Below the pieces are notes generated by a model that ran no database searches, was not told the DNA's origin, and was given only the letters and a program-made list of their open reading frames with translations. From the NCBI GenBank assembly GCA_029571025.1, contig JAKPTJ010000044.1, positions 1 through 64,000 of the forward strand: a DNA stretch of 64,000 nucleotides, in the 5' to 3' direction. The position numbers and the translations under genes were made by a program. Each line of letters opens with the position of its first letter. Position 1 is the stretch's first letter. This stretch comes from Deltaproteobacteria bacterium. GTDB taxonomy: Bacteria; Myxococcota_A; Polyangia; Polyangiales; Polyangiaceae. Shown here piece after piece: positions 3,692-47,343 of the stretch.

Positions 3692-5119
3692 TTACCAAAG
3701 ACCACTCCACCCAACGCCCATCACCGGAGCATACGTACCGTCCGCTCGTAAGCTTTGTCCGATCACCCCCGCCATGGGATGAGTCAAAGGCGCGTCGGCG
3801 CTTTTTTCTTCACTCGCCGCTGTCATCCAAAACGCTGCCAATCCCCCCGCCACAGCGCCAGACATCGTCACCAACACCCACGCACGTTGCCGCCCTTCGG
3901 TCGAATCACCGATGAGAAGCGGGCTTCCCACAGCCGCAAAAGACAGCGCCCCAAGCCCAGCACCCACGTCCACCATCATGATGCGCGAAGGCGATTCCTG
4001 CACCCAACGTCCCCATATTCCACCGACCGCAACGCCCCCCAGAGCACCGTATCCAAGGCCTTCGTAGGGAGTCACATCGGCCTTGCCACGAATCGCCATC
4101 TCCACGCCAGCCCCCAAACCCGTACCGATAAATCCACCAGAATGCGCCACCGCCGCGCCACCTGTGCCCATGCCGGCAAAGCTCAGGGATATCGACGCCA
4201 ACGACACGCCGGCCAGGCCACTTCCCACGGCCCACGCATAGCGATCCAATTCAGGCTGCACGTCGCGCCCCTTCGCCAACATCATTCCCCCGAAGACCGG
4301 CCAAACCGCCCCCGCGGACATATACCACGCGTCCCCAAGGCCCACGTCCCACTCCTCCGCAATGATCAGCGCACCCCCAAAACCCACGCCCGTTCCAAGC
4401 GCCATCAACGGATACGTCAGCCTCGCATCGTCCGATCCACTCGATTTTTGAAGAGAATATCCAACGAATCCGCCCAGCGCCGCCGCATGCATCACAAGCA
4501 CCGCCCTTCCCTCGGAGCGACGTTGTTCCGGTCTCATCGGACGTAGATCTCCTTCGAATCCAGAACCCCGATCGTCGTAGGAAGGCCTTGCCCCACGCAC
4601 AAGGTCGCGAAACATCACGACGGCTCGAACCTGGAAGTCCTCCGATGATACCGTCTCGGTGCGAACCAAAACGTGCTCCCCTCTCGGTGGCACCAAAAGC
4701 AAACGAAGGACGATATCCGAACCTTCGAATTCGAGGCGTGGTGATAACTGCCACGAAACGGAACGGGAAGCGCGGGCGAGCAATTCCCGCTCCGACACAA
4801 TGACATCGGAGGTGCGAGGCTCCGACAAGTCGACGACAAACCCAAGGTCTTGCGCCGTGTCGTGCAGCAGATTGTCCAACTCCCGCGCCTTGGTCCAAAG
4901 AAGACCATTTTGCAATTCGGGACGCCCCAGGGCCTTATCCGTAGGCACTTCACCCGTGGGCGTCAGGGTCGGAAGAATGACAATCCTGACCTCTTGCGCA
5001 ACGGAAGAGGATGAGTCCTGGGCGTGAGCGCGCGGCGACACGCCCGCCACAAAGCACGCAAGGCCGAGCCATGATGCTTTTGCGAAACGCCTCAGAACAT
5101 CACAACGCCATTGAGCCAC
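3692..5119 (-). CDS. Membrane protein with N-terminal periplasmic domain and Gly/Ala-rich transmembrane segments (hypothetical)
   Basis: N-terminal signal-like segment (WLGLACFVAGVSPRAHAQD) and a soluble domain of about 200 aa. The C-terminal half has repeated GxxxG/GAxxG-rich hydrophobic stretches (glycine-zipper-like). The high-GC context makes shadow ORFs common, so confidence is moderate. Confidence 0.45.
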   Translation of the reverse strand: MAQWRCDVLRRFAKASWLGLACFVAGVSPRAHAQDSSSSVAQEVRIVILPTLTPTGEVPTDKALGRPELQNGLLWTKARELDNLLHDTAQDLGFVVDLSEPRTSDVIVSERELLARASRSVSWQLSPRLEFEGSDIVLRLLLVPPRGEHVLVRTETVSSEDFQVRAVVMFRDLVRGARPSYDDRGSGFEGDLRPMRPEQRRSEGRAVLVMHAAALGGFVGYSLQKSSGSDDARLTYPLMALGTGVGFGGALIIAEEWDVGLGDAWYMSAGAVWPVFGGMMLAKGRDVQPELDRYAWAVGSGLAGVSLASISLSFAGMGTGGAAVAHSGGFIGTGLGAGVEMAIRGKADVTPYEGLGYGALGGVAVGGIWGRWVQESPSRIMMVDVGAGLGALSFAAVGSPLLIGDSTEGRQRAWVLVTMSGAVAGGLAAFWMTAASEEKSADAPLTHPMAGVIGQSLRADGTYAPVMGVGWSGLW

Positions 5120-6657
5120 AGGTCCACCACGCTGACATCGTCAACCTTGAACCGTTGCCCAACCTGGTTGATCGACGGTCGATAGTTGGGATTCGGAATA
5201 CCGGTCGCGCTGAACGTGGAAGTATCCCCCACCCGAGACACGTTTCGGCAAGGGCCCGCCTTCGACATGTCTTTTTTGAAGTCCGGGTTACACGGCTGGT
5301 CCATCGTGATGAAGTGCGGCTGCACATACATATATCCCACGCCGAGTTGGAACTTCACATACTCGCCCGCCTGCCACGTCACGCTACCCGAAGCCCGAAA
5401 CTTGCCATGGGCCTGCACATCCGTAAGCCCTGTGAAGTACACCTTCTGCGATGATGGATTGACCACGGAAGGATAGGTTTGCGCCGTCGCAGGATCGGGA
5501 TTGCGCTGGTACGAAGCGTAGTTGGGACGACGCAAAGACATCGCGTCGCTGGAGCCCAGGGCATCAAAAAGCTCACTATAATCGCGGCCTTCCGAACGAT
5601 AGGCCCCTTCGACGCGCGCATCGAAGGTGAGCCGTTGGAACTGCTCCCGATTCTCCCAAGGAATGACCATCATCCCCATGACCATCCATCCTTCCAACGG
5701 CGGATGGTTGACCAACGATCCCTCCAGATCCATCAAACCATAATCGCTCTTGTCCGTGGGAAACTCGAATAGTGCCCGGAAACCACCGTACGGCTCCAGA
5801 TACTTGATACGTCGCGAGACCAACGTATGCACTTCGATACCGGTGGTGCCACGACTCACCCCCGCGGACCGCTCCCCCGCTTTCGTTCCCTCGAGTTGAT
5901 ACGTCTGCCCAGTATGATCCGTATACGCGTAATTACCCGCCGTCCCATCGCGATTGACGTCGGATGGATCTGCACAGGAAACCTGCTTGTTGCCTTGATT
6001 GCCCCCCCCCGCACCACAGGCATGCATCGGCTCACTGAGACTGAACCTTCCCTCGAAACCAAACAACCACGTGGGTTTCGTGGCATCCCGTGCCTGGTTC
6101 ATGATGTTCACATCAAACCCTAGCGCGAGATACTCGATACCCGATCGGTCCGGAGATTCGAAGGGCAGACGAAACAACTGCTCTCCCGGCATCCCCGCAA
6201 GCACGACGCTCTGCACCCGATCGCTTCCATCAAGACCCGACAACTTGCTCGAGTCATTCAAGATGATCGGCATGCGAAGGTAAAGCGCGACATCCTTGTA
6301 CAACCCCACATCCACCCGCGTGTTGAGCCTCGAAGTCGAGCCGGAATACTTCGCCACGTTCATCGTGTCCGCCACGTATCCGCCCGACGACAATGAGCCT
6401 TGGTCAATCGAGGTTTCACGCACGATGTTGGCGTTCTTCCACATATGTTGATAGCCAAGGGTGAGGTGCAAATCGAAAAGGTCGTCGTCGTCGAAAGCGT
6501 CGACTACGGCCGTCACCTCACCAGGCTCGTTGAGTACGGGCCGTTCCGTTGCCTTATACGGCTCGTCCGCATAACCGGGCGAAACACCAAAAAGCATCGC
6601 GAACGCAACGAGGGCCCCACATCCCACCGGCACCGAATAGAGCGATTTCGTGGCCAT
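5092..6657 (-). CDS. Outer-membrane beta-barrel protein (hypothetical)
   Basis: Signal peptide MATKSLYSVPVGCGALVAFAMLFGVSPGYADEP. Alternating amphipathic beta-strand-like sequence throughout. C-terminal ...LNGVVMF ends in Phe, as in OMP85-dependent barrel signals. Confidence 0.55.
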   Translation of the reverse strand: MATKSLYSVPVGCGALVAFAMLFGVSPGYADEPYKATERPVLNEPGEVTAVVDAFDDDDLFDLHLTLGYQHMWKNANIVRETSIDQGSLSSGGYVADTMNVAKYSGSTSRLNTRVDVGLYKDVALYLRMPIILNDSSKLSGLDGSDRVQSVVLAGMPGEQLFRLPFESPDRSGIEYLALGFDVNIMNQARDATKPTWLFGFEGRFSLSEPMHACGAGGGNQGNKQVSCADPSDVNRDGTAGNYAYTDHTGQTYQLEGTKAGERSAGVSRGTTGIEVHTLVSRRIKYLEPYGGFRALFEFPTDKSDYGLMDLEGSLVNHPPLEGWMVMGMMVIPWENREQFQRLTFDARVEGAYRSEGRDYSELFDALGSSDAMSLRRPNYASYQRNPDPATAQTYPSVVNPSSQKVYFTGLTDVQAHGKFRASGSVTWQAGEYVKFQLGVGYMYVQPHFITMDQPCNPDFKKDMSKAGPCRNVSRVGDTSTFSATGIPNPNYRPSINQVGQRFKVDDVSVVDLWLNGVVMF

Positions 6658-6841
6658 TAAGCACATGTCCGTGTCGCGGACGGTAATGGCCTGGGTGATG
6701 GGATGTCAATGAATTACTCCCCGACGGGCCGATCCTTGGGTTTCCCCGAACGTCCGACGCTGGATTTCATGGCTTTGGATTCGAGGCTTGCCGAAGGGAA
6801 AAAGCGCGGTCGAACCTTTGGGGCAAGGGAGCGAGTCCCTT

Positions 6842-31454: not shown

Positions 31455-32810
31455 CTATTTTTTTCGCGCAATGAGATCACTCAACAAAAGCTGATACGCA
31501 ATCGACAAGGCTCGATCCCCTCGCCCCACCGGATTGCTCGGCACATGCCTCGGAATCATGATCTCACTGGTCGTCGCAGTAGAAGGCGAGGAAACTCGCG
31601 GCGCCGCGTTCGGTGAAGCAAGATGTCCCTCGATATCTTGCTCACGAACAATGGGAAAACCATCTCCCGAGCCCGGTTGCTGCACGGCTACGCCCGGCGT
31701 TATCCCCTCCGCCTGAATCGTTCTGCCCAGCGGCGTGTAGTACAACGTTGTCGTAAGCTTGAGCGCCGCCCCCTCCGGCAACTCCACAATGCTTTGCACG
31801 GACCCTTTTCCAAATGTCTTCGCTCCCACGATGATCCCTCTGCCGTGATCTTGTATAGCCCCGGCCACAAGCTCCGCCGCACTCGCCGTCAATTCGTTGA
31901 CCAACACCGCTAGCGGAAGACGACTCGCCGCACCACCCAATGACGCCGTCACCTCGTCCAACACTCGACCACGAGCGCGCGTCGTAAAGATGATACCCCC
32001 ATCGAGCAACTCATCCGCCACCTGCGCCGATTCGTGAACAAGACCTCCGGGATTGGCGCGCAAGTCCAAAATCATGCCTTCAAGAGGCTCGTCTCGCTGC
32101 AAACGCAAGTCCCCAAGCACCTGCAAAAACTCCTGATGAGTGCCCCGTTGAAACTGCTTGATGCCCACATACGCCACGTTGCCCTCGAGACGTTTCCCGA
32201 TCACACTTCGCACGTGGACCTGCGCGCGCACAATGCGCACACGAAGCGGTTGCGCCACCCCAGGACGACGAAGCAGAAGCGATACGGGTGTTCCTTGCTG
32301 ACCACGAATGCGTCGCACGACTTGGTCGAGCGGCTTGGCTTGGGTAGGCCAATCATCGATGGCAATCACTTGATCACCCGGACGCAAACCGGCACGCTCC
32401 GCAGGCGATCCTTCCATGGGACGAATCACAGTGATGAGCCCATCGCGTGCATCCACTTCCACACCGATCCCTACGAAATGCCCCTCGGTGTCATTTCGAA
32501 ACTCTTCATATTCTTTCGGCGAAAGATAGGAAGAATGCGGATCAAGTTCAGCCACCATCCCCTTGACCGCGCCCTCCACCATCCTCGCTCGATCGACAGG
32601 TTGGACATAGTGATTCTCAACCAACACCAAAACGCGAGCCAATTGCTCGACCAGATGAAAGGGACTCTGCGACTGGGATTGCGCCCGCAGGGGGCCCGCT
32701 CCCAAAAATACGAAAAGAAAAGATATAAGAGAAACAATTCTTCCCCGCCTCTTCGCCCTTCCCCGAGCGCACAATTGCTCAAATTCGCTACACAAACTCA
32801 AATTTTTCAT
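31455..32810 (-). CDS. ctpA: Carboxyl-terminal processing protease (S41A, PDZ-containing)
   Basis: Signal peptide. PDZ region (GLRPGDQVIAIDD). S41 catalytic block LDLRANPGGLV ... TASAAELVAGAIQDHGRGIIVGAKTFGKGSVQ (Ser/Lys dyad context). Confidence 0.85.
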   Translation of the reverse strand: MKNLSLCSEFEQLCARGRAKRRGRIVSLISFLFVFLGAGPLRAQSQSQSPFHLVEQLARVLVLVENHYVQPVDRARMVEGAVKGMVAELDPHSSYLSPKEYEEFRNDTEGHFVGIGVEVDARDGLITVIRPMEGSPAERAGLRPGDQVIAIDDWPTQAKPLDQVVRRIRGQQGTPVSLLLRRPGVAQPLRVRIVRAQVHVRSVIGKRLEGNVAYVGIKQFQRGTHQEFLQVLGDLRLQRDEPLEGMILDLRANPGGLVHESAQVADELLDGGIIFTTRARGRVLDEVTASLGGAASRLPLAVLVNELTASAAELVAGAIQDHGRGIIVGAKTFGKGSVQSIVELPEGAALKLTTTLYYTPLGRTIQAEGITPGVAVQQPGSGDGFPIVREQDIEGHLASPNAAPRVSSPSTATTSEIMIPRHVPSNPVGRGDRALSIAYQLLLSDLIARKK

Positions 32811-35233: not shown

Positions 35234-36604
35234 CTAAATCGTTCGTCTTCGAGCAGAGACTCGAGTTCCCATATCCCTCTTTCCATCATCGCGTTTCGCA
35301 CGCCGAAATCGGGATGCCGATCCCATGAGCAGCAGCATACCCAACCCAAACCACCCGGCAGAATGAGATACGGGCGCGTAGGCACATCCACCAGACTCCG
35401 GTGGGCTATACACCGACCCCGCGCTCTTCTCCTTGAAACATACTCCTACCTCCGGCGCGCAGGAAAACCCGACCGGACACTCCCCCTGCAGACCACAGAG
35501 CGGCGAGCAGTAATTCTTGCCATCGTTCACACAACGAAGCCCCTCCGCACAATCCTCGGGTGCCGAGCACGGCTCGTTCATAAAACAATAGCCACTGCCC
35601 GCTCCCACGTCCCCGCACGTTTGTCCCGAAGCACAATTCGGCGCTGCCAGATCACACGACCGCGTGCAATACTGACCATGAAATCCCTGCACACACGTCA
35701 ACCCCTCGGGACATACCCCATCGTTGCATAACTCCAGCCTCGGCGTCCCATCGTATTGCTTCCCCTCCTCGCTCGTATACGTGGTTCCAGCGAGACGCAC
35801 GGCTTCATCGATCAATGCCTTGAACCGATCCGTGCGCGTCCAGATGTTGTCATCCCCCATACAGTTCAACCCCCGAGAGGTCACCCCTATCACCGCATGA
35901 TTCGCCGAAATCGCTGGTCCTCCCGAGTCTCCCTGGCAAATCGACTGCGTTCCCGTAAAATCCGCGTCCCCGGTACCCATGACGAACCGCAATACTTTCA
36001 CGCCATCCCGACGATATCGCACGCCCGAACTGTTCATATCCTTCGGGTCCGTCAAACCATAGCCCACCGCCGTGAATACCTCGCCAATCTCCGGTCCCTT
36101 GTTCACACGCACCCGCAGCGGAACGATCGGAATCTGAGACTGCGTCTCGCCCGTCACGTCATCCTTGTCCAACACAATCAAAGCCAAATCATGTCCACAC
36201 AAACTCGTCGAACCGTCGTGAACGATATGCTTACCTTTCGCCAACTTTCCTTGTGGATTGTGAGCAGCATCATACCCCCGCATGATCAACAGCGTCTGCG
36301 GATCCAAATCCGATATCACGTCTTGATAACAATCCACGTATTCCGTGGTCTTGGATACGCAGTGCCGGGCGGTCAGAACAACGTTCGGCGCGATGAGGGC
36401 GCCAGTACATAACCCCCCTCCAAAAATGCTCGTCCCGGCGTAGATCATCACCACGGCATCGTTTTCCTGTGGCGTATCCACAACGCCCCCCACAATCGGT
36501 TGCACCTGCTGCGCGACAGGCTCCAGTGACGGCTCGGAGGAACCACAGGCAAAACAAGCAACAGCATAAGACCCGAAACCCAAATATTTTACAAACCAAC
36601 GCAT
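35234..36604 (-). CDS. Secreted trypsin-like (S1) serine protease with Cys-rich spacer and C-terminal MYXO-CTERM-like tail
   Basis: Start ATG 36604 (MRWFVKYLGFGSYAVACFACGSS). LTARHCV (His), D, and CQGDSGGPA (Ser) catalytic triad motifs. Cys-rich EGF-like region. C-terminal GGCAYAP...WFGLGMLLLMGSASRFRRAKR sorting-signal-like tail. Confidence 0.8.
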   Translation of the reverse strand: MRWFVKYLGFGSYAVACFACGSSEPSLEPVAQQVQPIVGGVVDTPQENDAVVMIYAGTSIFGGGLCTGALIAPNVVLTARHCVSKTTEYVDCYQDVISDLDPQTLLIMRGYDAAHNPQGKLAKGKHIVHDGSTSLCGHDLALIVLDKDDVTGETQSQIPIVPLRVRVNKGPEIGEVFTAVGYGLTDPKDMNSSGVRYRRDGVKVLRFVMGTGDADFTGTQSICQGDSGGPAISANHAVIGVTSRGLNCMGDDNIWTRTDRFKALIDEAVRLAGTTYTSEEGKQYDGTPRLELCNDGVCPEGLTCVQGFHGQYCTRSCDLAAPNCASGQTCGDVGAGSGYCFMNEPCSAPEDCAEGLRCVNDGKNYCSPLCGLQGECPVGFSCAPEVGVCFKEKSAGSVYSPPESGGCAYAPVSHSAGWFGLGMLLLMGSASRFRRAKRDDGKRDMGTRVSARRRTI

Positions 36605-37071
36605 GCTCGACAGCCTAGTCGCACGTCGATACGGTGGCCACCACAACACCCATTATTCCTGGCAAATACCACCGTGATCGGTGCAATCCCTGCGCCCGTG
36701 CCATGCCACCAAACCCTTCGCGAAAATGTCGAATAGTCTCCCCCTTTTTCGTCCGCATGCACCAGCCCGTCATGCATCGGTACACGGATGCACCCGAGCG
36801 CCCACTCTCCTGTCGCAAGGCCGTGACTGCCCCGAGAGGTATGCGTCAAATGGCCGTAAAACCCAATACTGTCGTAGAAATCGGTCGCGCAACCCCGGGC
36901 CCGCAAAACGTCGCGTGAAAGATGGAGACGACAACCGAAAAATATCTCGTCCTGAACCTGATAAGGCCTGCCTCCCTGCAAGGACAGCATGCCTCCAAGC
37001 CTGATACAAGTTCGAGACGCCTCTCGAGTGTGCCCGTAATATCGATCCGTAATACAATCAAGCCCCGCCAC
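36589..37071 (-). CDS. Possible L,D-transpeptidase (YkuD) catalytic-domain protein or remnant
   Basis: FYGHLTHTSRGSHGLATGEWALGCIRVPMHD resembles the YkuD H-G-(T/S)...S-H-G-C-[IV]-R motif. Short ORF in an otherwise ORF-poor 650-nt gap. Low confidence. Confidence 0.3.
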   Translation of the reverse strand: MAGLDCITDRYYGHTREASRTCIRLGGMLSLQGGRPYQVQDEIFFGCRLHLSRDVLRARGCATDFYDSIGFYGHLTHTSRGSHGLATGEWALGCIRVPMHDGLVHADEKGGDYSTFSRRVWWHGTGAGIAPITVVFARNNGCCGGHRIDVRLGCRACVGL

Positions 37072-37243
37072 AGCGATAGCTTGAATGGCCTAATCACCCA
37101 TCTGGGTCCTCGATGCGGAATCCCGTTCTCAGTCCAATTCAATACGTTAGACAAACGGCCCCCTCGGCCTTCTCCAACCTCCCGCCAGCGTTCTCGCTTC
37201 TCCAAGCAGCTTCTCCCACCCAATTCCCGATACCGGAGGGAAA

Positions 37244-38572
37244 TCACACCCCGGAAAACTGCACTTCATGGAACCGCATCGAAGGGGTCCGTGCCCCACG
37301 ATACGGGTATGGATCCGAACCAAGCTCCGCCAAGGCTTGCCAGAACGTGAGGTGGTTGCCCGCAAGATTCATTTCGGCCACGGGTTTGACGATACGCCCG
37401 GACTCCACCCAATGCCCCCGGATGCCAATCGAAAAATCACCCGTCGCTGCATTGGAATTGCCCCCGGAAAACCCCGTGACGAGGATTCCTCTTCCCATCG
37501 TGCGCAACAATCCCGCAAGATCTTGTTTTCCTTTGGGAAATACTAGATTGCTCGTCTCCCCGACCGTCGGCTCCCACCCCAATTTGGAAGCGTAATAGGT
37601 ATCCAACAAATACGTTCGCAAAACTCCTTTTTCGAAAATCGGACGACGTCGGGTGCTCATCCCTTCGTAATCATACGTTCGAGAAGCCGCCCCCTTTGGC
37701 AGCAGAGGGTCATCGTCGATGTGAAGGAGGATCGACCCCACCTTTTCTCCGAGTTTACCCGACATATACGAGCGTTTTTGCTGCAAGGAGTTGCCCCCCA
37801 ACGGCCCCAATAGCCCCCCGAGCAAACGATCCGCCACCCGGTTCTCAATGATACAAGGATACTTACCACTCTTCCAAGGGGTTTCTCCAATCCCCGCCAA
37901 CGCCCTTCGCACCGCTTCTTTGCCCATGAGGTCCATCGAAGGAAGTTCGGCATAATGATGAGTAGCAGCGTAGTCTCCCCCGGAAGGTTTTCGATCCCCT
38001 TCGCCTCGAACCGTAGCGGAAGCCGAGCGAGCGAAAACCGAAGATTCCCGCTCGCCTTTCGTGCCCTGACTATCCCTCATCGCGCTCATCGTGTGGTAGA
38101 CACGCATCGCTCCCGTAGCCGAAAGGATGAGATCCGCGCCCTCGGCCTGCCGCATCGCTCGTTCCAGCTCCATCGCCTGCTTTTTTTGCGCCGCACCGTC
38201 GATGACACCAAGATTGTCCCTGTCCAACAGCAGAAGATCGCCCTCAAACCTCTCTTGGCAGCGCTCCAAAGGGGGAAGCTTGCGATGGGGATCCGGCTGA
38301 AGCACCTTGGTCATCGCCACCGACTCGGCCACGAAAAGCTCCATGGCTTCCGGACGCAAATCGCTTGTCGTGTGGGAAGAATAACGCCCATCGACAAATA
38401 AGGAGATGGAAAGGCCCTTGTGGACAGACTCACGCAAGCGGTCGAGCTTCCCATCGCGCCACTCCACACCACTTTCCCGCATGCGCCATACGCTTGCCCG
38501 CGCCGCCGCTGCGCCCTGCCGTTTCGCCAAAATAAGCGCATTTTCAACAAGTTGCATAAGCGTCGCGTTCAT
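37244..38572 (-). CDS. pmbA: PmbA/TldE-family protein (peptidase U62 partner subunit)
   Basis: Start ATG 38572 overlaps the tldD stop (ATGA). MNATLMQLVENALILAKRQGA...VEWRDGKLDRL... is a typical TldE/PmbA N-terminus. The C-terminal domain is conserved. It lacks HExxxH and has no signal peptide. Confidence 0.8.
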   Translation of the reverse strand: MNATLMQLVENALILAKRQGAAAARASVWRMRESGVEWRDGKLDRLRESVHKGLSISLFVDGRYSSHTTSDLRPEAMELFVAESVAMTKVLQPDPHRKLPPLERCQERFEGDLLLLDRDNLGVIDGAAQKKQAMELERAMRQAEGADLILSATGAMRVYHTMSAMRDSQGTKGERESSVFARSASATVRGEGDRKPSGGDYAATHHYAELPSMDLMGKEAVRRALAGIGETPWKSGKYPCIIENRVADRLLGGLLGPLGGNSLQQKRSYMSGKLGEKVGSILLHIDDDPLLPKGAASRTYDYEGMSTRRRPIFEKGVLRTYLLDTYYASKLGWEPTVGETSNLVFPKGKQDLAGLLRTMGRGILVTGFSGGNSNAATGDFSIGIRGHWVESGRIVKPVAEMNLAGNHLTFWQALAELGSDPYPYRGARTPSMRFHEVQFSGV

Positions 38573-40143
38573 GCTCCCCTCCCACCCACGGAAATACCAC
38601 TCACTTTTAAGGTCGGTAATCCAAAACCCACCGGAACGCCCTGCCCATCCTTGCCACAATAGCCAGCCCCGGTGATATGCTTCAAATCGTTGCCGATCAT
38701 CGCCACCTTCTCGAGAACGTTTGGGCCATTGCCGATGAGGTTCGCATCCTTGATCACATGGGTCAGTTTCCCATCTTCGATGAGCCTTCCGTGTTTCAAA
38801 TAGAAGGTAAAATCCCCGGCACCAATCATCACCTGTCCGTTGGTGAAGATCTCGGCGTAAATCCCCTTTTTGACGGAAGCGATGATCTCCTCCGGGCTTT
38901 CTTTCCCCGCAAGCATATAAGTGTTGCGCATTCGCGGCACCGGTGGATAACAATAGGATTCACGACGTCCCGAGCCTGTACGGGGCGCCTTGAAGTGCTG
39001 CGCTGAAATACGGTCGTGCAAATAGGTGCGTAATACGCCGTTTTCCACCAATACCGTCTCCTCGGTGGGATGCCCTTCATCGTCGATGTTGAGCGAACCA
39101 CGCTGTCGTCCAGTGCCCCCATCCACGATGGTCACACCCTCCGGAGCGATTCTTTTTCCAATCCGGTTCGCATAAATCGAAATCCCCTTGCGATTGAAAT
39201 CCGCTTCCATCCCGTGCCCAATGGCCTCGTGCAAGAGCAGTCCTGGATTTCCTGGCCCAAGGACGACCGGCATGTCTCCCACCGGCGGAGACACGGCTTC
39301 AAAAAGCAACACCGTATTGCGCGCTGCCGTGGTTCCCGTGTCGTCGATATGAGCTGGCGTGAGAAAACGAATCCCATCGCGCTGGGCGAAGGTCCAGTAC
39401 CCCGTCTCAGTTTTTCCCTTGTTTTCTCCTACACAGGACACGGAAAGGACGCCCATGGGCCGCTCGTCGGCGACCAGCAGCCCCTCGGAATTGGCGATCA
39501 GGATGTGGGAGGTCTCATCTTGAAGAGCCACCGTCACCTTGATGATTCGCGTATCATGATTTCGCGCCGCTTTTTCCGCCCGCTGAACGATCGGAAGCTT
39601 GCGGTCGATGCCGACTTCGGTCCACGGCGTTTCCACGGTGTAGCGAGACACGACGATACGAGGCGTGAGGGTTATCGAACGCGGGCTGGAAGGGCCATCG
39701 GCCACCGCGGAAGCCATGTCCGCGGCTTCGAGCAAGGCCCCGGGCGTCAGGTCCTCCGTAAATGAAAATCCGGTCGTATCCCCTTGAATCACGCGAATGC
39801 CCGCGCCAAGACCCACCTCGGAATAGGCCCTATTGACCTCGCCATCTTCCATACCCACCCAATGCGATACCCTGTGCTGCAAAAATATTTCCGAAAAAGA
39901 AGCCCCCCGCGACAACGCCCGGGATAATACCTTGCGTATCAATCCCTCATCGACACCGAAAGCATCAAAATGACTCACGCTCACCGCTCCCGAATCCTTG
40001 CCCGGTTCCTGCAAACTCGGTGACTTGGAAGTCAAACGCTGGATTTCCGTGCGACCACAACCCGCCACGAAAGGCAGCGATACGGTAGCCGCACCGTAGC
40101 CCATGACTTGCAATAAGTCCCTGCGATCCAGAGAAGTGGACAT
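38569..40143 (-). CDS. tldD: TldD-family metalloprotease with Tat-type lipoprotein signal
   Basis: N-terminus MSTSLDRRDLLQVMGYGAATVSLPFVAGCG has a twin-Arg motif (RRDLL), an h-region and lipobox VAGC. HEAIGHGMEADFN is the TldD HExxxH metal site. C-terminal GxC...G core. Confidence 0.85.
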   Translation of the reverse strand: MSTSLDRRDLLQVMGYGAATVSLPFVAGCGRTEIQRLTSKSPSLQEPGKDSGAVSVSHFDAFGVDEGLIRKVLSRALSRGASFSEIFLQHRVSHWVGMEDGEVNRAYSEVGLGAGIRVIQGDTTGFSFTEDLTPGALLEAADMASAVADGPSSPRSITLTPRIVVSRYTVETPWTEVGIDRKLPIVQRAEKAARNHDTRIIKVTVALQDETSHILIANSEGLLVADERPMGVLSVSCVGENKGKTETGYWTFAQRDGIRFLTPAHIDDTGTTAARNTVLLFEAVSPPVGDMPVVLGPGNPGLLLHEAIGHGMEADFNRKGISIYANRIGKRIAPEGVTIVDGGTGRQRGSLNIDDEGHPTEETVLVENGVLRTYLHDRISAQHFKAPRTGSGRRESYCYPPVPRMRNTYMLAGKESPEEIIASVKKGIYAEIFTNGQVMIGAGDFTFYLKHGRLIEDGKLTHVIKDANLIGNGPNVLEKVAMIGNDLKHITGAGYCGKDGQGVPVGFGLPTLKVSGISVGGRGA

Positions 40144-40759
40144 GGATTTGCCTCATTTTCCAAGGGTTTTCCCTGGTCTACCGGAGAACCTTCGAAGACG
40201 CCAACGGAAAAAGTCTCCACCCGTCATCTTGGCCGATCCCGCCGGGACTTCCATGCTTTTTCGAGCATGTGCCCTGCCAACGCAACACCCCCTTGACGCG
40301 TTCCCATGGTGGTTGACTACACCCAAAACGACCGCTGCAGCCCCAAGCGCCCACCACGTCGATACTGCATCATAACGAGTTCACCGCATTGACATACTTC
40401 CTTGTTGAGCCTTTTCGACAGGTTGGATCTCGACCAGGGCGGGCTCGTGTTGCGCCATCACGACTCTGTCGGCGATGCCGAGGTTTTTCCCCGCAGCGGC
40501 GTCGATAGCCGGATACTCCCACGCCACAAGACTCCCGAGCCATGGACGAGCACAGATTCATATTCATCAATTATTTCCATTGCTTACACATTAATCACCC
40601 ATGCCGATGCGTTCAACCTTGCGGAAACGAAAGCCTGTCCCGCTCATTCGCTTTGAAACCGCGTCATCGGGTTGTCTTGCAACCAGATAGTCGCCGGAAC
40701 TCTCCACTCCCGCACAACTCGACCTTGCTCCCATCACCGCATCACTGTATCCTTGGAGA

Positions 40760-42253
40760 ATGAAACGCGCGCTTTGCCTCGCGGCGCTCGTCATTGTCCC
40801 ACCCGCTTGCGCCGCGGACCGCGAGAGCCACGTTTCCGCCGGAGCGACCAATCCTGTGCTCGACGCCAGCATCGACCCGGATGATGTTTCTGATTCCTAT
40901 ATTCCATGGGATGGTTCGCCCGAAGAGCCCACCCCAGTCGATGCTTCCGATGAAATCGGCGGGGATTCATCGATCGACTCGTCTAAGGATGCCGGGGAGG
41001 AAAGCGCCATCGAGCCGTTCATCCCGGCCGAATTGCGGGTGGGGCTGATCCACACCGGACCTTCCCCCCAGACGACACCTGCCACATGGAATGCCCACCT
41101 GCCGAAAATCGTGGGCGACGGCGCATTCTGGTATGCGGTCCATACCCATTATCCCCCCTCCGTAGCGGATCGTTATGCGGCAATCATGAGACGCGAGGCC
41201 GGAAGCGCCCTCCATGCTTGGGTGGAAGTTGCGCGTATCGCTTATCCGCATCAGTCCCCTGGGATCGTGATGGACATATCGCAGCGGCTGCACCTCATCT
41301 TCGATTGTATGCGCCCCGCCACGCAAGATGTGCTCTGTTTTCCAGGAGGAGCGGGGACGACGGGAAGAAACTCGCGATTCTACCACCTGATCTTCTCCAC
41401 GCGGGATGGCAGCGGCGCGCTCCGTTTCGATACCTACAGCAACCATGACGAATGGACCGCGGAGTCCAACGGCTACCAGGGAATCGCAACCACCACCGAC
41501 GGGGTGACAGTATGGGCACTGGCCGACTCTGCCTGGGGACGTGTGGTACAGTGGTGGTACAGCGGTGCGCAATACGGCACCATCGGCACGTTGACAGCCG
41601 CCCCCGCATACCTGCTTTATCCAATCTTGACCGGACACCCGTCCCTCGGTTCTTCACAACTCATCCTTTACGCCGGGGAGTTCGACCCCGCGGGGGGCAA
41701 TAACGCAAGCTACCTCGCTTCCACCGCCTACGTTGGAAATACGTCGTCGCTGAGCCAATTATTCCGTCGTGCGCCAGCGCAACCCGTTCCAGGCATAGTC
41801 AGCGCCTATCCCTCGGACCTCGAACACGACGCGCAGGGCACGTTGTACGCGCTCTCCTATTTACCGAAAAGTGAAAAACAATGCACGGAACTCCTTCGCT
41901 TCGACAGCGAGCTCGCGCAGCCGCCCACGATCGTGCCAGTGGGATGCGTAAGCAACTACGCCAAGCTCAAATTCGCTAGCCATGGAGCGCTATACCTGCT
42001 CGACGCCGGCCCCGGCGCGACTATATCCCTTGGCGTGAGCATGGACCGGGGCGATAGCTGGACATGGCATTCGGTTCCCATCACGGGATTGCCATCCAAC
42101 GGTGATATTCGCTACGTGGGATATACGCCGGTTAAGCCCTACACCTCGCCACTTACGTACGAACCAAATCGATGGGTGGTGTTTTTCTCCGGACTCGATG
42201 AGTCGAACGGATCGGTGCATAGCTACGTCGGCGAGATGGATCTGGCGCCGTAA
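40760..42253 (+). CDS. Secreted hypothetical protein
   Basis: Signal peptide MKRALCLAALVIVPPACAA. Acidic Asp/Ser-rich linker, then a Trp/Tyr/Gly-rich domain (probable beta-propeller or sialidase-like fold, not confirmed). Confidence 0.5.
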   Translation: MKRALCLAALVIVPPACAADRESHVSAGATNPVLDASIDPDDVSDSYIPWDGSPEEPTPVDASDEIGGDSSIDSSKDAGEESAIEPFIPAELRVGLIHTGPSPQTTPATWNAHLPKIVGDGAFWYAVHTHYPPSVADRYAAIMRREAGSALHAWVEVARIAYPHQSPGIVMDISQRLHLIFDCMRPATQDVLCFPGGAGTTGRNSRFYHLIFSTRDGSGALRFDTYSNHDEWTAESNGYQGIATTTDGVTVWALADSAWGRVVQWWYSGAQYGTIGTLTAAPAYLLYPILTGHPSLGSSQLILYAGEFDPAGGNNASYLASTAYVGNTSSLSQLFRRAPAQPVPGIVSAYPSDLEHDAQGTLYALSYLPKSEKQCTELLRFDSELAQPPTIVPVGCVSNYAKLKFASHGALYLLDAGPGATISLGVSMDRGDSWTWHSVPITGLPSNGDIRYVGYTPVKPYTSPLTYEPNRWVVFFSGLDESNGSVHSYVGEMDLAP

Positions 42254-42610: not shown

Positions 42611-45600
42611 CTAGATACCGTACTCAGCGCGCTCGATCAGCTCGAGCTGCATCTGCTTGTTCAGCGTGACGAAATAGGCATTATACCCGGAAATCCGCAC
42701 GAGCAAATTGCGATAGTTCTCCGGATGAACCATCGCGTCGCGAAGGGTATCGGACGTGACTGCGTTGAGCTGCATTTGCATGCCCCCCAGCGAAAAATAG
42801 GACTTCACGTACGCGGCCATCGTGTCGACCGTCCGCTCCCGCGACTCATGGGCCGATGGCACCACCTTCACATTGAAGGCAATATTGTTCGGCATATTGG
42901 CCGGATCCAACCTGGCCACATCACGGATATTGTCCAATAGGTTCGGCGATGCCCCCGGTGTGGGAGTCAGACCTGGCGTAAATGGCTTGCCCGCCAACCG
43001 CCCCGACGGCAAAGCTCCAGCCAGCGTGCCGTAAGATACATGCGTAGACATCGACCAGAACCCAGCCGCATAACGGCCTCCCCGGTAGTTGGTATACCGA
43101 TCATACAGCGACTGCACCATCTTGGTAATGCGGTTGCCCATCGCCACGGCGTCTTCGTTGCCCGAGCCAAAAAGCGCTACTTTGTGGGATACCTGCGCCA
43201 ATAACAGCGGATCGTTGGCGAAATTCGTGTCCACTGCCCGCTTGAGGTCAGCGAATGACACAACTCGTTGCTCGAATACGAGCTTCTGGATCACCAACAT
43301 CGAATCGATGACGTCAACCAGCCCGATGCACGCAGCCCCAGAACTGTTGTACCTGGCTCCCCCATACGTAACATCCTTTCCCGATGCAATGGTGCCCTCG
43401 ATCAGGCTGGACAGCAGTGGCGTCGGACGAAGCTGCTGATGCGCCTTACCCAACATCTCGTTGTACTCGATCGATCGGTCGACCAGAAAAGCCACCTGCT
43501 GCCGGTAAGCCTCGAAAAACTGGTCGAAATTCGCAAAATCGCCAGCCTCGATCGAACCGGTAGATGGTCCCACCTTCCAATCCATCAGCGGATGCCAGCC
43601 GTCGTTCAACGCCATCTCCAGCGCCGCCACCAGACTGAGCATCTGGAAATTGGTATGGCCGATATGCTTTCCCGACAGCGTCGGCTCCACACACCCGGTC
43701 GCCGCCCAATCACGCACGTCACGTACCTCATAGCCATAGCGGCTCAAGGCCTTCCCCACGACCTCGTCGTTATGCAACGACGGAGTCGCCGCCGTGATCA
43801 GATTGACCTCGCAAAGACGCTTCAGGTACGCTTGGCTGTTTTTGCCCAGATGGAATCTAGCGTTCACATTTGGGTCGCGAAGACTAAGGATTTCAGTGAC
43901 TTTCAAGAATATATACGTCATATCGCAGACCGCGTCTTCGCCTTCGGGGGTCACCCCGCCCAGCGTGATCGCTTGATCCGAGGAACTGCCACCAAAGTAG
44001 TAGTTGGCCACGTCGGGAGTCAGCGGCAAGTGGTCCGTGCAGCGCAGCATCAAGTCACCCACCAGTTCAATCGCACGTTTGGTGTAGGCCCGCCGCTGCT
44101 CCAAAGTCTCCAACTTGCCCATATCGGCCTCGAAATATGGCTGCAGCCACTGGTCCAACCGGCCCATCGACAGCCCGGCATTGGTGCTTTCCATATGCAG
44201 CCCCACCCACGTGATCCACACCGAATTCACCGCCTCATCGAGCGTGCGGGCTGGCCCCACGACCACCTGGCTACAGATCTCGGCCAGTCGGCGCAACTCA
44301 GCCGCCCGACTGGGGTCGCTTTCCCGCTCCGCCTCATACGCCGCTTGCGCCGCCAAATGCCGAGAATAGGTGCCCAACCCCTCCAGCGCGAGAATGAATG
44401 CCCGCCGGGTGGTATTACGCTCCTCATCCGAGTCGGCAGCCATCGCTTCCTCGATCTCGGCGATGATGCCGGACGTTCCCAGCCGCAACATCTTGGGGAA
44501 ATCCGGGATCGTGTGTGAGATGGTTGCGGTTTTCCAGTCGAAATAGACCGCAAATCGGTCGTCGATACGCTGGCCCAAAGGCGAACGGTAGTGGTCTCGC
44601 ACCCATTCCTTGAAGTTGCGACGGCTCCAATAGGGGAATACATCCTTATGCAGCAATTCTCGGGTCTCCTCCGAGACACCGTAAGGATTCAGAGGTCGAT
44701 GCGGCACCGTCAGCAGCTCGCCCCAGATCATCGTCCCATGCCCCTCCGGATAGACAACCACACCGGTTTCCTTGGTAGTTGTCGTGCCGGCAATGAGGTC
44801 GTTGGCATGGATGATCGGCCGACGATTCTCCATCACATATTGATAGGCCAGGGCTTTGCGCAGCACCGGGTGCCAGGGCTTGCCCTTCGAATCTCGCTCG
44901 AAACCGTGTTTTCGATGCCATTCGGTCAATAGTTTCGGCAATTCTGGGCATACCTCGGCGTCATGGTCGAGGTGCCGGTTCAAAAACTTAGCTAGCCGCG
45001 GGAAATCCTTCAAACTGAAATCACGCAAGTAGGGGTCCTCGAGATATTTCACACCCGGATCGACTTGCGAAGTCGCAATGCGGTAGTCCGCACGCTCGCG
45101 CATCTGCCGGGCCAGATCAGGATTCGTGGCACCGGCTTGTGTGCGACGATCAGCGTTATCGTTACGAAGATCTTTCGCCAGATTCTTGATTTGCTGGCGG
45201 AAAAGGAGTCGGGAAATCAGATATACGAACAGGTTTAGCGATGATGTATTGCCATCGACGTAAAAGTCGTTGCGCAACGTCATGAGGACCTGCTCGGTTG
45301 GCGTGGCCGTGAGGAATTTCGTAACTTCAGCGTCGGATTTGAATACCAGCACGACATCGACGGCCTCGGGAATGCGGCCCATCGCCTTTGCTTTGCCATC
45401 TCGAAACCGGATTCCGGTGCGCACGGAGCCAGAGCGGGTGCGAATGCCGACCACAAGATCGATCCAACCGTCCTTGATACGCAATTCGTCACGCAACCTG
45501 GGGTGCCAGGTGTAGAGCTTGGCCATGAGACCGAGCAGCCCACGCACGATCAATTGTTGCGGACTGTGGCGCGCCGCATCGCTCACCGCCGGGTCCGGAT

Positions 45601-45718
45601 GAAATGGGCGCATGTCCAGCGGGTCCACCGGGGGCAGCTTCACAGCGGTCGGTTCGGCCATGGTCATGGCATGCTCGGTTCCGGAAGAAGTGGACGAAGA
45701 GGTGTTGGGGAACGTCAT
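42611..45718 (-). CDS. Glycyl radical enzyme (PFL-like superfamily) with Cys-x-Glu active-site loop and about 250-aa N-terminal extension; substrate unknown
   Basis: C-terminal glycyl radical motif VRISGYNAYFV (RVSGY-type). Thiyl loop WAATGCVEPTLSGKH (Cys-Val-Glu as in dehydratase/lyase-type GREs; PFL has Cys-Cys). 1035 aa. The ATG overlaps the activase stop (ATGA). Confidence 0.9.
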   Translation of the reverse strand: MTFPNTSSSTSSGTEHAMTMAEPTAVKLPPVDPLDMRPFHPDPAVSDAARHSPQQLIVRGLLGLMAKLYTWHPRLRDELRIKDGWIDLVVGIRTRSGSVRTGIRFRDGKAKAMGRIPEAVDVVLVFKSDAEVTKFLTATPTEQVLMTLRNDFYVDGNTSSLNLFVYLISRLLFRQQIKNLAKDLRNDNADRRTQAGATNPDLARQMRERADYRIATSQVDPGVKYLEDPYLRDFSLKDFPRLAKFLNRHLDHDAEVCPELPKLLTEWHRKHGFERDSKGKPWHPVLRKALAYQYVMENRRPIIHANDLIAGTTTTKETGVVVYPEGHGTMIWGELLTVPHRPLNPYGVSEETRELLHKDVFPYWSRRNFKEWVRDHYRSPLGQRIDDRFAVYFDWKTATISHTIPDFPKMLRLGTSGIIAEIEEAMAADSDEERNTTRRAFILALEGLGTYSRHLAAQAAYEAERESDPSRAAELRRLAEICSQVVVGPARTLDEAVNSVWITWVGLHMESTNAGLSMGRLDQWLQPYFEADMGKLETLEQRRAYTKRAIELVGDLMLRCTDHLPLTPDVANYYFGGSSSDQAITLGGVTPEGEDAVCDMTYIFLKVTEILSLRDPNVNARFHLGKNSQAYLKRLCEVNLITAATPSLHNDEVVGKALSRYGYEVRDVRDWAATGCVEPTLSGKHIGHTNFQMLSLVAALEMALNDGWHPLMDWKVGPSTGSIEAGDFANFDQFFEAYRQQVAFLVDRSIEYNEMLGKAHQQLRPTPLLSSLIEGTIASGKDVTYGGARYNSSGAACIGLVDVIDSMLVIQKLVFEQRVVSFADLKRAVDTNFANDPLLLAQVSHKVALFGSGNEDAVAMGNRITKMVQSLYDRYTNYRGGRYAAGFWSMSTHVSYGTLAGALPSGRLAGKPFTPGLTPTPGASPNLLDNIRDVARLDPANMPNNIAFNVKVVPSAHESRERTVDTMAAYVKSYFSLGGMQMQLNAVTSDTLRDAMVHPENYRNLLVRISGYNAYFVTLNKQMQLELIERAEYGI

Positions 45719-46647
45719 ATCGCCTCCAGGCCGAGATCAACGAGATGTTGGCGCAGTCGGGCTGCCAGGCCGCGGGGCAGCCATGTCCGCATAATATCTA
45801 ACTCAGTGAATTTGTTAGCAATTCCCAATTGAGGACCCTTGTCTACCCAGGTTGGATTGTAATCCAGCAACCGGACTTGACGAACCCCCACATCGAGCAG
45901 AAATCGGCCGATCGCCGTCAGGTTTTCTTCCGTCGCGGTGATATCCGGGACCAGCGGAATGCGCGGCTGCAGATCGAACGTCCCGGCACGGGATAGCTCC
46001 ACCAACCGCTTGAAATTGGCCAGGATCCGCTCGTTCGGCACCCCGCAATACGCACGGTGGTCCTCGGAATCCATGAGTTTCAGGTCATAATAGATGGCGT
46101 TCAGATGCGGCAGCACCCCTCGTTCGAACGGCTCCCACCGAAAGTATCCGGCAGTCTCTAAAAGGGTGTGTATACCTTCGGCACGACAGGCCGCGGCAAG
46201 TTCCCCAAGCAGCTCCATCGCTAGAGTCGGCTCTCCCCCGGAAAAGGTGACGCCGCCTCCGGAGGCTTCATAAAAGGGCTTATCCGCGCGAAGCTTGGCC
46301 ATCAACTCGGCGACGTTGGCTGGCTTACCCACCTGGCGCAAAGCCCCCGATGGACAGACCGGTACGCAGTCGAAGCATCTGGTGCAGGCCCAACGATTGA
46401 TGCCGACACCAGGCATGATGGCGTCCTCGGGGCAGTGGCCACGACATCGGGTACAGCCGGAAATACAATCCGCAACATTAAATGACAACTCAGCGTTTTG
46501 ACTCAAACTTTCCGGGTTATGACACCATCGGCACGACAGCTTACAGCCCTTGAAAAAAACCACCGAGCGAATGCCCGGACCGTCGTCAAGCGCGTTGCCT
46601 TTCACCTCGAGCAGCAACGGTTCGTGCTTCGTCAGAATGGCCGTCAT
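45715..46647 (-). CDS. Glycyl-radical-enzyme activating enzyme (radical SAM, with two auxiliary ferredoxin-like [4Fe-4S] motifs)
   Basis: CKLSCRWCHNPE is the Cx3Cx2C radical-SAM cluster. CISGCTRCRGHCP and CTRCFDCVPVCP are ferredoxin-type Cys motifs. A glycine-rich SAM motif (SGGEP) is present. Confidence 0.9.
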   Translation of the reverse strand: MTAILTKHEPLLLEVKGNALDDGPGIRSVVFFKGCKLSCRWCHNPESLSQNAELSFNVADCISGCTRCRGHCPEDAIMPGVGINRWACTRCFDCVPVCPSGALRQVGKPANVAELMAKLRADKPFYEASGGGVTFSGGEPTLAMELLGELAAACRAEGIHTLLETAGYFRWEPFERGVLPHLNAIYYDLKLMDSEDHRAYCGVPNERILANFKRLVELSRAGTFDLQPRIPLVPDITATEENLTAIGRFLLDVGVRQVRLLDYNPTWVDKGPQLGIANKFTELDIMRTWLPRGLAARLRQHLVDLGLEAI

Positions 46648-46662
46648 CGCTGCTATCCCTCC

Positions 46663-47343
46663 TCACTGCAGGGTTGGCTGCTCACGCGCAGCGGTGGGGT
46701 TCAGAGCGAGAATCTCATGGACAACGCTATTTTTGATCCGTGTGATCATGCGCTCTTTCAGAGAAGCCGGGTCAGGATGCATGTAGTCGATGAGGTGGTT
46801 GTGGATGCCTGCGATATAACCATGTAACTGCGTCCACAGGCGAACCGTGATGAAGTACAGGTCATCCCTTGCTGGCGGCGTGCCGGTGCAGGCAGCGATG
46901 GTAGTGGCAGTCAGGCGGAGACTGTCGAGCGCCGTCTCGAGTTCGACCCGAGCCGTGTTCTCCATCGCCGTGCCCACGTAGTCGTCATACTTGGGCACAT
47001 GCCAGGTGAACATCAACCCGTATAGGTGTGTATTGTCGAAGGCAAACGTCACGTAGGCATCGATCAGCGCGTCGAGCCGTTCGAATGGGTTGGTATGGGG
47101 TTCGGCCGCTTTGGCAAGAGCCTGACCGAGGCTATGAAAGCCGCGGGTGAGCAGACCGAGGTACAATTCGTCTTGGGAGGCGAAGTAGTTGTAGACCGTT
47201 TTCGCGGCGATGCCCAGGCGAGCGCCGAGTTTGCGCATGGAAAAACCTTGCCAACCTGCCTCCACGAACAAGTTCAATGCCTCGTCCAAGATCTGGTTTC
47301 GCACGGCTTCGACCTCGTTTTCCGAACGACGGCGTCTTGGCAT
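46663..47343 (-). CDS. TetR/AcrR-family transcriptional regulator
   Basis: N-terminal HTH ILDEALNLFVEAGWQGFSMRKLGARLGIAAKTVYNYFASQDEL. 15 nt upstream of the activase gene on the same strand. Confidence 0.85.
   Translation of the reverse strand: MPRRRRSENEVEAVRNQILDEALNLFVEAGWQGFSMRKLGARLGIAAKTVYNYFASQDELYLGLLTRGFHSLGQALAKAAEPHTNPFERLDALIDAYVTFAFDNTHLYGLMFTWHVPKYDDYVGTAMENTARVELETALDSLRLTATTIAACTGTPPARDDLYFITVRLWTQLHGYIAGIHNHLIDYMHPDPASLKERMITRIKNSVVHEILALNPTAAREQPTLQ

Follow-up and report, generated by a model that had tools for sequence, protein, structure and literature searches.

Does a protease that the literature treats as cytoplasmic work in the cell envelope of some bacteria? This question is raised by an operon in contig JAKPTJ010000044.1 of a Deltaproteobacteria bacterium (Polyangiaceae; GenBank assembly GCA_029571025.1), of which the first 64,000 nucleotides, referred to as the window, were analysed. 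The operon consists of tldD and tldE (pmbA), which encode the catalytic and the non-catalytic subunit of a TldD/TldE-type zinc metalloprotease. The features that the original prediction had ascribed to the two genes are all present in the sequence, and their strand, unstated there, is the minus strand. To our knowledge, everything known about the function of TldD/E proteins comes from cytoplasmic substrates, namely microcin B17 and other leaders of peptides made on the ribosome and modified after translation (RiPPs), and the CcdA antitoxin. Judging from the sequence, we consider it probable that the window encodes an extracytoplasmic TldD/TldE “pencil-sharpener” protease, exported as a folded complex by way of twin-arginine translocation (Tat) and with TldD anchored to lipid. 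That TldE leaves the cytoplasm as a passenger of the pre-assembled TldD/TldE heterodimer, in an envelope-located subfamily spread over several phyla (Myxococcota, the Fibrobacteres-Chlorobi-Bacteroidetes (FCB) group, and Acidobacteriota), is given a little better than an even chance.

The N-terminal signal of TldD

The window TldD starts with the sequence MSTSLDRRDLLQVMGYGAATVSLPFVAGC (in longer form MSTSLDRRDLLQVMGYGAATVSLPFVAGCGRTEIQ) and exceeds E. coli TldD at the N-terminus by about 48 residues. The twin-arginine (RR) motif DRRDLLQ, the h-region and the lipobox VAGC that had been proposed for this segment were found at residues 6-12, 10-28 and 26-29, respectively. The h-region is 19 residues long, has a mean Kyte-Doolittle hydropathy of 1.32, and leads to VAG/C. 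In an AlphaFold2 model, for which 30 orthologues were used as input, TldD is confident from about residue 57 (mean predicted local distance difference test score, pLDDT, 78.6), and residues 1-55 are modelled as non-globular with pLDDT below 50, as would be expected for a signal peptide followed by a tether.

To assess conservation, the window protein was compared with its 120 best database homologues (n = 121; 53-100% identical, almost all 510-535 amino acids long). These homologues come mostly from metagenome-assembled genomes (MAGs) labelled as Myxococcota, “Deltaproteobacteria”, Eisenbacteria and Riflebacteria. An RR motif within the first 32 residues is present in 105 of the 121 sequences, and homologues without it are mostly N-terminally truncated gene calls. 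The consensus reads [N/S/T]-R-R-[D/E]-F-L-[K/R], which on sequence grounds is a textbook Tat motif: among the RR-bearing TldD proteins, RR is found in 105/105, Phe in 101/105 and Leu in 91/105. A Cys follows the RR in 98 of the 105, at a median distance of 22 residues. The commonest lipoboxes are AAGC, LAGC and LSGC, with ASG also observed before the Cys, and the linker varies in length among homologues (median 21 amino acids).

An alignment of 30 sequences (orthologues 52-68% identical) shows R7, R8, G17 and P24 to be invariant and F10 to be conserved in at least 90%, the remainder of the N-terminal segment being variable. The Pfam TAT_signal model matches 17 of the 30 aligned orthologues (best E-value 3.2e-6). 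A signal in some TldD orthologues is already flagged by automated annotation, and one orthologue is named by NCBI [quoted passage not shown]. On the strength of this comparison, the signal on TldD is not a chance feature and export of TldD out of the cytoplasm is well supported. The exported, lipid-anchored TldD of the original prediction is thereby favoured by the frequency of both the RR motif and the Cys behind it.

Several observations made on the window protein itself weigh against its use of the Tat pathway. Its DRRDLLQ is off-consensus, carrying Leu for the Phe and Gln for the Lys of S/T-R-R-x-F-L-K, and it is the sole protein with Leu at the Phe position among the 105 RR-bearing sequences. 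In addition, the Pfam TAT_signal search gave no match for the window TldD, and an NCBIfam scan of both 45-residue N-termini (E ≤ 10) matched no signal model. Leu at the Phe position of the Tat motif is nevertheless tolerated, and AmiC, an accepted E. coli Tat substrate, has the motif RRRLLQ, which is much like that of the window.

These departures from the consensus could also be accommodated if the signal were real and used by Sec, or retained as an uncleaved membrane anchor, so that TldD would cross the membrane unfolded and assemble (or not) outside; a lipobox alone is enough for Sec-dependent lipoprotein export. We consider such a course quite unlikely. Sec signals need no twin arginine, yet RR is invariant and F-L-[KR], as in the Tat consensus, follows it in more than 85% of the homologues, while the h-region of the window protein is only mildly hydrophobic. 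Furthermore, a TldE without a signal would have no way to join a TldD exported in this manner, and the similarity of the AmiC motif to that of the window also speaks for the Tat pathway.

Tat export further depends on where translation of TldD begins. The tldD open reading frame (ORF) cannot be longer than annotated here, because an in-frame TGA lies four codons 5' of the ATG at 40143. JGI's gene call for this protein, identical in sequence (P0001, 511 amino acids), gives a shorter form that starts at Met14 and lacks the RR segment (40102..40143; loci L081-L084). If Met14 were the true start, the RR segment would never be translated and TldD would be no Tat substrate. We hold this to be very improbable. 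No Shine-Dalgarno sequence precedes Met14, in contrast to the GAGG found 7 nucleotides before ATG 40143, and the signal would be left without a charged n-region. The Met at position 14 of the window protein is replaced by V, I, A or W in most orthologues, against an upstream RR segment that is the best-conserved part of the TldD N-terminus, with the RR itself invariant. For these reasons, the JGI start is regarded as an annotation error on sequence grounds, and a conserved downstream start that would remove the RR was not found among the orthologues. Several other database TldD homologues appear to be N-terminally truncated in the same way. Four JGI metagenome samples, each represented by a contig, contain the operon with 100% identity, and microdiversity in the signal region is therefore uninformative.

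The TldD/TldE pair and its conservation

Profile searches place both proteins in the same family. Pfam domains PmbA_TldD_1st, 2nd and 3rd are matched by TldD at 3.4e-61, 9.4e-16 and 7e-12 and by TldE at 1.8e-58, 1.1e-5 and 9.8e-7, all above the gathering scores. The best NCBIfam models are TldD for the window TldD (390 bits; equivalog cut-off 513) and PmbA for the window TldE (168 bits; equivalog cut-off 438). Judged by these profiles, the pair are clear TldD/TldE (M103) members, and because their NCBIfam scores lie below the equivalog cut-offs, they are placed outside the subfamily of the E. coli proteins and are not their equivalogs. Residues 68-522 of the window TldD align with E. coli TldD (5NJ5_A) at 1e-102, and both the zinc-binding and the GxC motifs are retained (Table 1). 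The cysteine of the latter matters for the activity of the archaeal TldD Sso0660 (PMC3497727). The HExxxH motif is absent from TldE, in which LLGGLLGPLGG stands where TldD has LLHEAIGHG; TldE is therefore the non-catalytic subunit. A tblastn search for a second TldD/E pair in the window returned this one pair only. Another pair of adjacent ORFs, of 524 and 475 amino acids (3692..6666), was considered as a second TldD/E pair and rejected as unrelated.

The junction of the two genes reads gggaggggagcATGAacg and contains the predicted ATGA start/stop overlap, with GGGAGG upstream of the tldE ATG. This arrangement is consistent with translational coupling of tldD and tldE, and the ATGA (-1) overlap is common to the eight closest genome loci (L001-L008) and to the JGI gene calls. 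A scan for promoters and terminators in 36600..40800 gave sites no commoner than in shuffled sequence. Coordinates of all operon features are listed in Table 1.

Table 1. Features of the tldD/tldE operon, in window coordinates
Feature	Position	Strand	Remarks
tldD	38569..40143	-	524-amino-acid catalytic subunit of a TldD/TldE zinc metalloprotease (MEROPS M103, formerly U62); ~57-residue N-terminal extension
tldE/pmbA	37244..38572	-	442-amino-acid non-catalytic partner; no signal peptide, no HExxxH
Shine-Dalgarno-like GAGG	40151..40154	-	7 nucleotides 5' of the tldD ATG; read from sequence
Predicted Tat/lipoprotein signal peptide, residues 1-28, MSTSLDRRDLLQVMGYGAATVSLPFVAG	40060..40143	-	Homology to RR-bearing N-termini; pLDDT <50
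Twin-arginine codons R7 R8 (CGC AGG)	40120..40125	-	Invariant alignment columns
Lipobox V26-A27-G28-C29	40057..40068	-	Fits [LVI][ASTVI][GAS]C; Cys29 is the predicted lipidated first mature residue
Linker/tether, residues 30-57	39973..40056	-	Between Cys29 and the folded domain; rich in Ser, Pro, Gly and Gln
HEAIGH zinc-binding and catalytic motif, H305-H310	39214..39231	-	H305, E306 and H310 invariant; aligns with HEAVGH of E. coli TldD
Cys496 in GYCGKDGQ, conserved GxC cysteine of TldD	38656..38658	-	C496-G497-K498-D499 invariant; aligns with GVCGKEGQ of E. coli TldD
GGGAGG, Shine-Dalgarno of tldE	38578..38583	-	Within the tldD 3' end; read from sequence
ATGA start/stop overlap	38569..38572	-	tldE ATG 38572..38570, tldD TGA 38571..38569

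A genome scan with one genome per species yielded 80 loci, which span Myxococcota, Eisenbacteria, Bradymonadia, Ignavibacteria/Chlorobiota, Calditrichota, KSB1, Zixibacteria, Cloacimonetes, Acidobacteriota and Bacteroidota, the last represented by Carboxylicivirga, Marinilabiliaceae and Sphingobacteriia. A Tat-type TldD N-terminus is present in about 60 of the 80 loci, distributed over at least seven phyla. Apart from five loci on short contigs or at contig ends, and locus L063, in which tldE is found about 1.4 kb away, every locus has tldE on the same strand directly 3' of tldD. Outside the eight closest loci, the two genes are separated by gaps of about 5-130 nucleotides.

In the Tat-type loci with a readable tldE (~56 of ~60), TldE starts within -4 to +3 of residue 1 of the window TldE; the three or four exceptions are due to an implausible upstream or downstream codon picked by automatic start choice. 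No in-frame start upstream of TldE gave a signal-like peptide; for the window TldE, the 29 residues encoded upstream in its frame are charged, their codons being part of tldD. Alignment with the NCBIfam PmbA model, which represents E. coli PmbA, pairs residues 4-421 of the window TldE with model positions 13-425 and thus leaves no room for a signal peptide. Since TldE starts at its folded domain in the readable Tat-type loci, it never has a signal there, and the absence of a signal that had been pointed out for the window holds for orthologous TldE proteins in all of these loci. On this comparison, a Tat-type TldD paired with a signal-less TldE is a conserved architecture of several phyla, and not a peculiarity of the contig studied.

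The cysteine content of TldE was also addressed. TldE proteins beside a Tat-type TldD have on average 1.08 cysteines, compared with 2.0 in those beside a signal-less TldD (Mann-Whitney p = 0.009). A cysteine-poor TldE would fit extracytoplasmic life, a weak indication because the sequences are not phylogenetically independent.

The signal itself occurs in two variants. In Myxococcota and Bacteroidota, the signal of Tat-type TldD ends in a lipobox Cys, and Tat-type TldD without the Cys is found in Ignavibacteria, Calditrichota, KSB1, Zixibacteria and Cloacimonetes. Loci of this Cys-less type include L009, L012, L016, L018, L021, L027-L030, L032, L040, L042, L052, L059 and L062, together with others. 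By its sequence, the Cys-less variant looks like a soluble periplasmic form cleaved by signal peptidase I, and the same export design would therefore exist in lipid-anchored and soluble versions.

Most of the subfamily consists of the Tat form in a neighbour-joining tree built from mature TldD domains. Signal-less TldD proteins make up a few small nested clades, one of Myxococcota/Bradymonadia, two of Bacteroidales and one of Desulfobacterales, besides scattered single sequences. Nested loci without a signal, which also lack the linker and have tldE adjacent, are L017, L023, L034, L036, L038, L054 and L077; L050 and L058; and L037 and L060. The distribution looks like that of an old Tat signal followed by several later losses, or repeated returns to the cytoplasm, with gains possible on an unrooted distance tree such as this one. 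As tldE stays by tldD in both the Tat and the signal-less state, the pair is argued to be a functional unit. Two Archangium MAGs illustrate the variation of the signal: L049 has the full Tat/lipobox signal (MTRRDFVGYG...LLSGC), and L043 a shortened and degenerate one (MTRRDSAGDG...LLTGS), without Phe-Leu and without Cys, which is either in decay or the result of an assembly error.

Proposed export of the heterodimer

The operon structure, the catalytic motifs, the conservation of the Tat signal and lipobox, and the signal-less state of TldE rest on sequence and its comparison. We infer Tat dependence, lipidation, formation of the heterodimer before export, the membrane that holds the complex and the substrate. 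Co-export of TldE with TldD is likewise something that we only infer. Joint export of TldD and TldE in folded, complexed form is probable, since TldE never has a signal of its own in dozens of related bacteria.

In the proposed sequence of events, tldD, with its Tat signal peptide ending in a lipobox, and tldE would be translated in a coupled manner and in equal amounts. TldD would then fold, bind zinc and pair with TldE in the cytoplasm, as suggested by the E. coli heterodimer and its stability. The E. coli enzyme needs both subunits, its active site being enclosed by the heterodimer (PMC5810440), and the heterocomplex exceeds either homodimer in stability (PMC10885120). Recognition of the RR signal by TatBC would be followed by passage of the folded heterodimer of about 100 kDa across the inner membrane, with TldE as hitch-hiker. 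A complex of this size is within the known range of Tat cargo, e.g. PaoABC (PMC4273604), and signal-less subunits are exported by Tat both in PaoABC (PMC4273604) and in heterodimeric substrates in general (PMC10924467). On the periplasmic side, as the lipobox suggests, TldD would be lipidated and cleaved at Cys29 by Lgt and LspA (signal peptidase II), so that the complex would face the periplasm, held at a membrane by a tether about 28 residues long. By E. coli rules, the Gly that follows Cys29 in the window TldD suggests transfer to the outer membrane, with the reservation that these rules may not be those of this lineage. Once in place, the protease would trim unfolded peptides from one end, a task in which general turnover or nutrition is likelier than specific microcin processing.

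The main rival to joint export of the two subunits is a possible, though rather unlikely, course in which only TldD takes the Tat route and acts outside, either as a monomer or as a homodimer, TldE staying in the cytoplasm. There, TldE would be the partner of another TldD paralogue, or would cap TldD in the manner of a chaperone and keep it inactive before export. It would agree with the presence of a signal on TldD only, and with TldE-type proteins crystallising as homodimers (PMC5810440). It is made possible by the archaeal TldD Sso0660, which is proteolytically active alone, as a dimer, without its TldE (PMC3497727). This last observation also weighs against the need for a TldE passenger, since an exported TldD might not need TldE.

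The organization of the loci argues against separate fates of the two proteins. In at least seven phyla, Tat-type tldD has kept tldE as its neighbour; the closest relatives show start/stop overlaps, and the two genes have no other conserved neighbour. TldE itself lacks a catalytic motif, and beside Tat-type TldD it is relatively poor in cysteine. The E. coli protease, moreover, requires both subunits, and its heterodimer is the form of greater stability. Export of TldD and TldE as one folded heterodimer is the reading that we prefer.

Genomic setting and relation to known systems

The original prediction had offered the processing of peptides or microcins as the task of an exported TldD. Clustering of the ORFs that flank the operon in the 80 loci and the window retrieved only tldD, tldE and antisense shadow ORFs as conserved neighbours. 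No RiPP or microcin genes accompanying the operon were found among the window neighbours or in the flanks of the 80 loci. As no such cluster accompanies the operon and its neighbours are not conserved, a microcin-processing role finds no support. In the closed chamber of E. coli TldD/E, into which unfolded peptides are threaded, cleavage proceeds without sequence preference (PMC5810440; PMC10885120), and because of this mechanism, the trimming of unfolded peptides in the periplasm as a general task appears as the most economical guess for lineages with known extracellular proteolysis. It is drawn by analogy with E. coli and held with low confidence.

Several other genes of the window deserve mention. 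A secreted trypsin-like serine protease (35234..36649, minus strand) is encoded 600 bp 3' of tldE; its C-terminal region is long and cysteine-rich and may end in a membrane or sorting segment, and the gene is not conserved beside tldDE elsewhere. Divergent from tldD lies a gene for a 497-residue protein (40760..42253, plus strand) that has a signal-like N-terminus, matches no Pfam family and is likewise unconserved as a neighbour in other loci. A CtpB-like S41 C-terminal processing peptidase that includes a PDZ domain is encoded at 31455..32810 (minus strand), and with this peptidase and the trypsin-like enzyme the region is rich in envelope proteases. A glycyl-radical enzyme operon (42611..47343, minus strand), not conserved beside tldDE in related loci, comprises a 1035-residue enzyme (PFL-like and Gly_radical domains, with about 250 N-terminal residues outside Pfam), followed by a radical-SAM activase (45715..46647) and a TetR regulator (46663..47343). 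Finally, an 829-residue ORF (26725..29214, minus strand) matches Pfam MVP_shoulder (1.8e-27), Vault_3 and Band_7 and thus represents a major-vault-protein-like sequence on a bacterial contig.

Compared with known systems, the window operon combines familiar elements in a different setting. In E. coli, the tldD and tldE genes are unlinked, unlike those of the window, which are adjacent and overlapping. The proteins of the E. coli pair (PDB 5NJ5; PMC5810440) share with those of the window the three-domain fold of both subunits, HExxxH together with the GxCGK cysteine, and a non-catalytic partner. They differ in having no signal peptide and in acting on cytoplasmic substrates (the microcin B17 leader and CcdA), whereas the window TldD has an N-terminal extension with Tat motif, lipobox and tether.

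Hydrogenase-2 (HybO/HybC) and DmsAB are among the complexes in which one subunit hitch-hikes through Tat. A further one, PaoABC (PMC4273604), resembles the proposed TldD/TldE cargo in that the signal is carried by one subunit and is absent from its partner, and assembly precedes export. The known natural hitch-hikers are redox enzymes with complex cofactors, in contrast to the pair studied here, which would be a zinc protease.

Tat-dependent lipoproteins occur in Streptomyces as well as in archaea. Those of haloarchaea (PMC2945643) have, like the window TldD, a twin-arginine n-region and a lipobox Cys at the cleavage site. Such proteins have been described mainly in archaea and Gram-positive bacteria, and the host of the window is a diderm near Myxococcota.

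A full-text literature search, with the 2022 family review (10.1016/j.micres.2022.127186) outside it, found no work linking TldD, PmbA or U62 with Tat, and the terms “TldD” and “twin-arginine” occurred together only in unrelated passages of a single paper. What would be new, as far as sequences can indicate, is the application of two known designs, the Tat lipoprotein and the hitch-hiking partner, to this protease.

If the proposed export is true, many gene calls in which the RR segment is cut off, such as that of JGI, would be flagged as mis-started, and caution would be needed in transferring the annotations “modulator of DNA gyrase” and “microcin-processing” to these TldD/E proteins. The Tat field would gain a widespread non-redox hitch-hiker pair with an activity that is easy to assay. 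For the family itself, it would mean that a part of TldD/E has a different, envelope-located job, for which the trimming of unfolded peptides in extracellularly proteolytic bacteria is one candidate.

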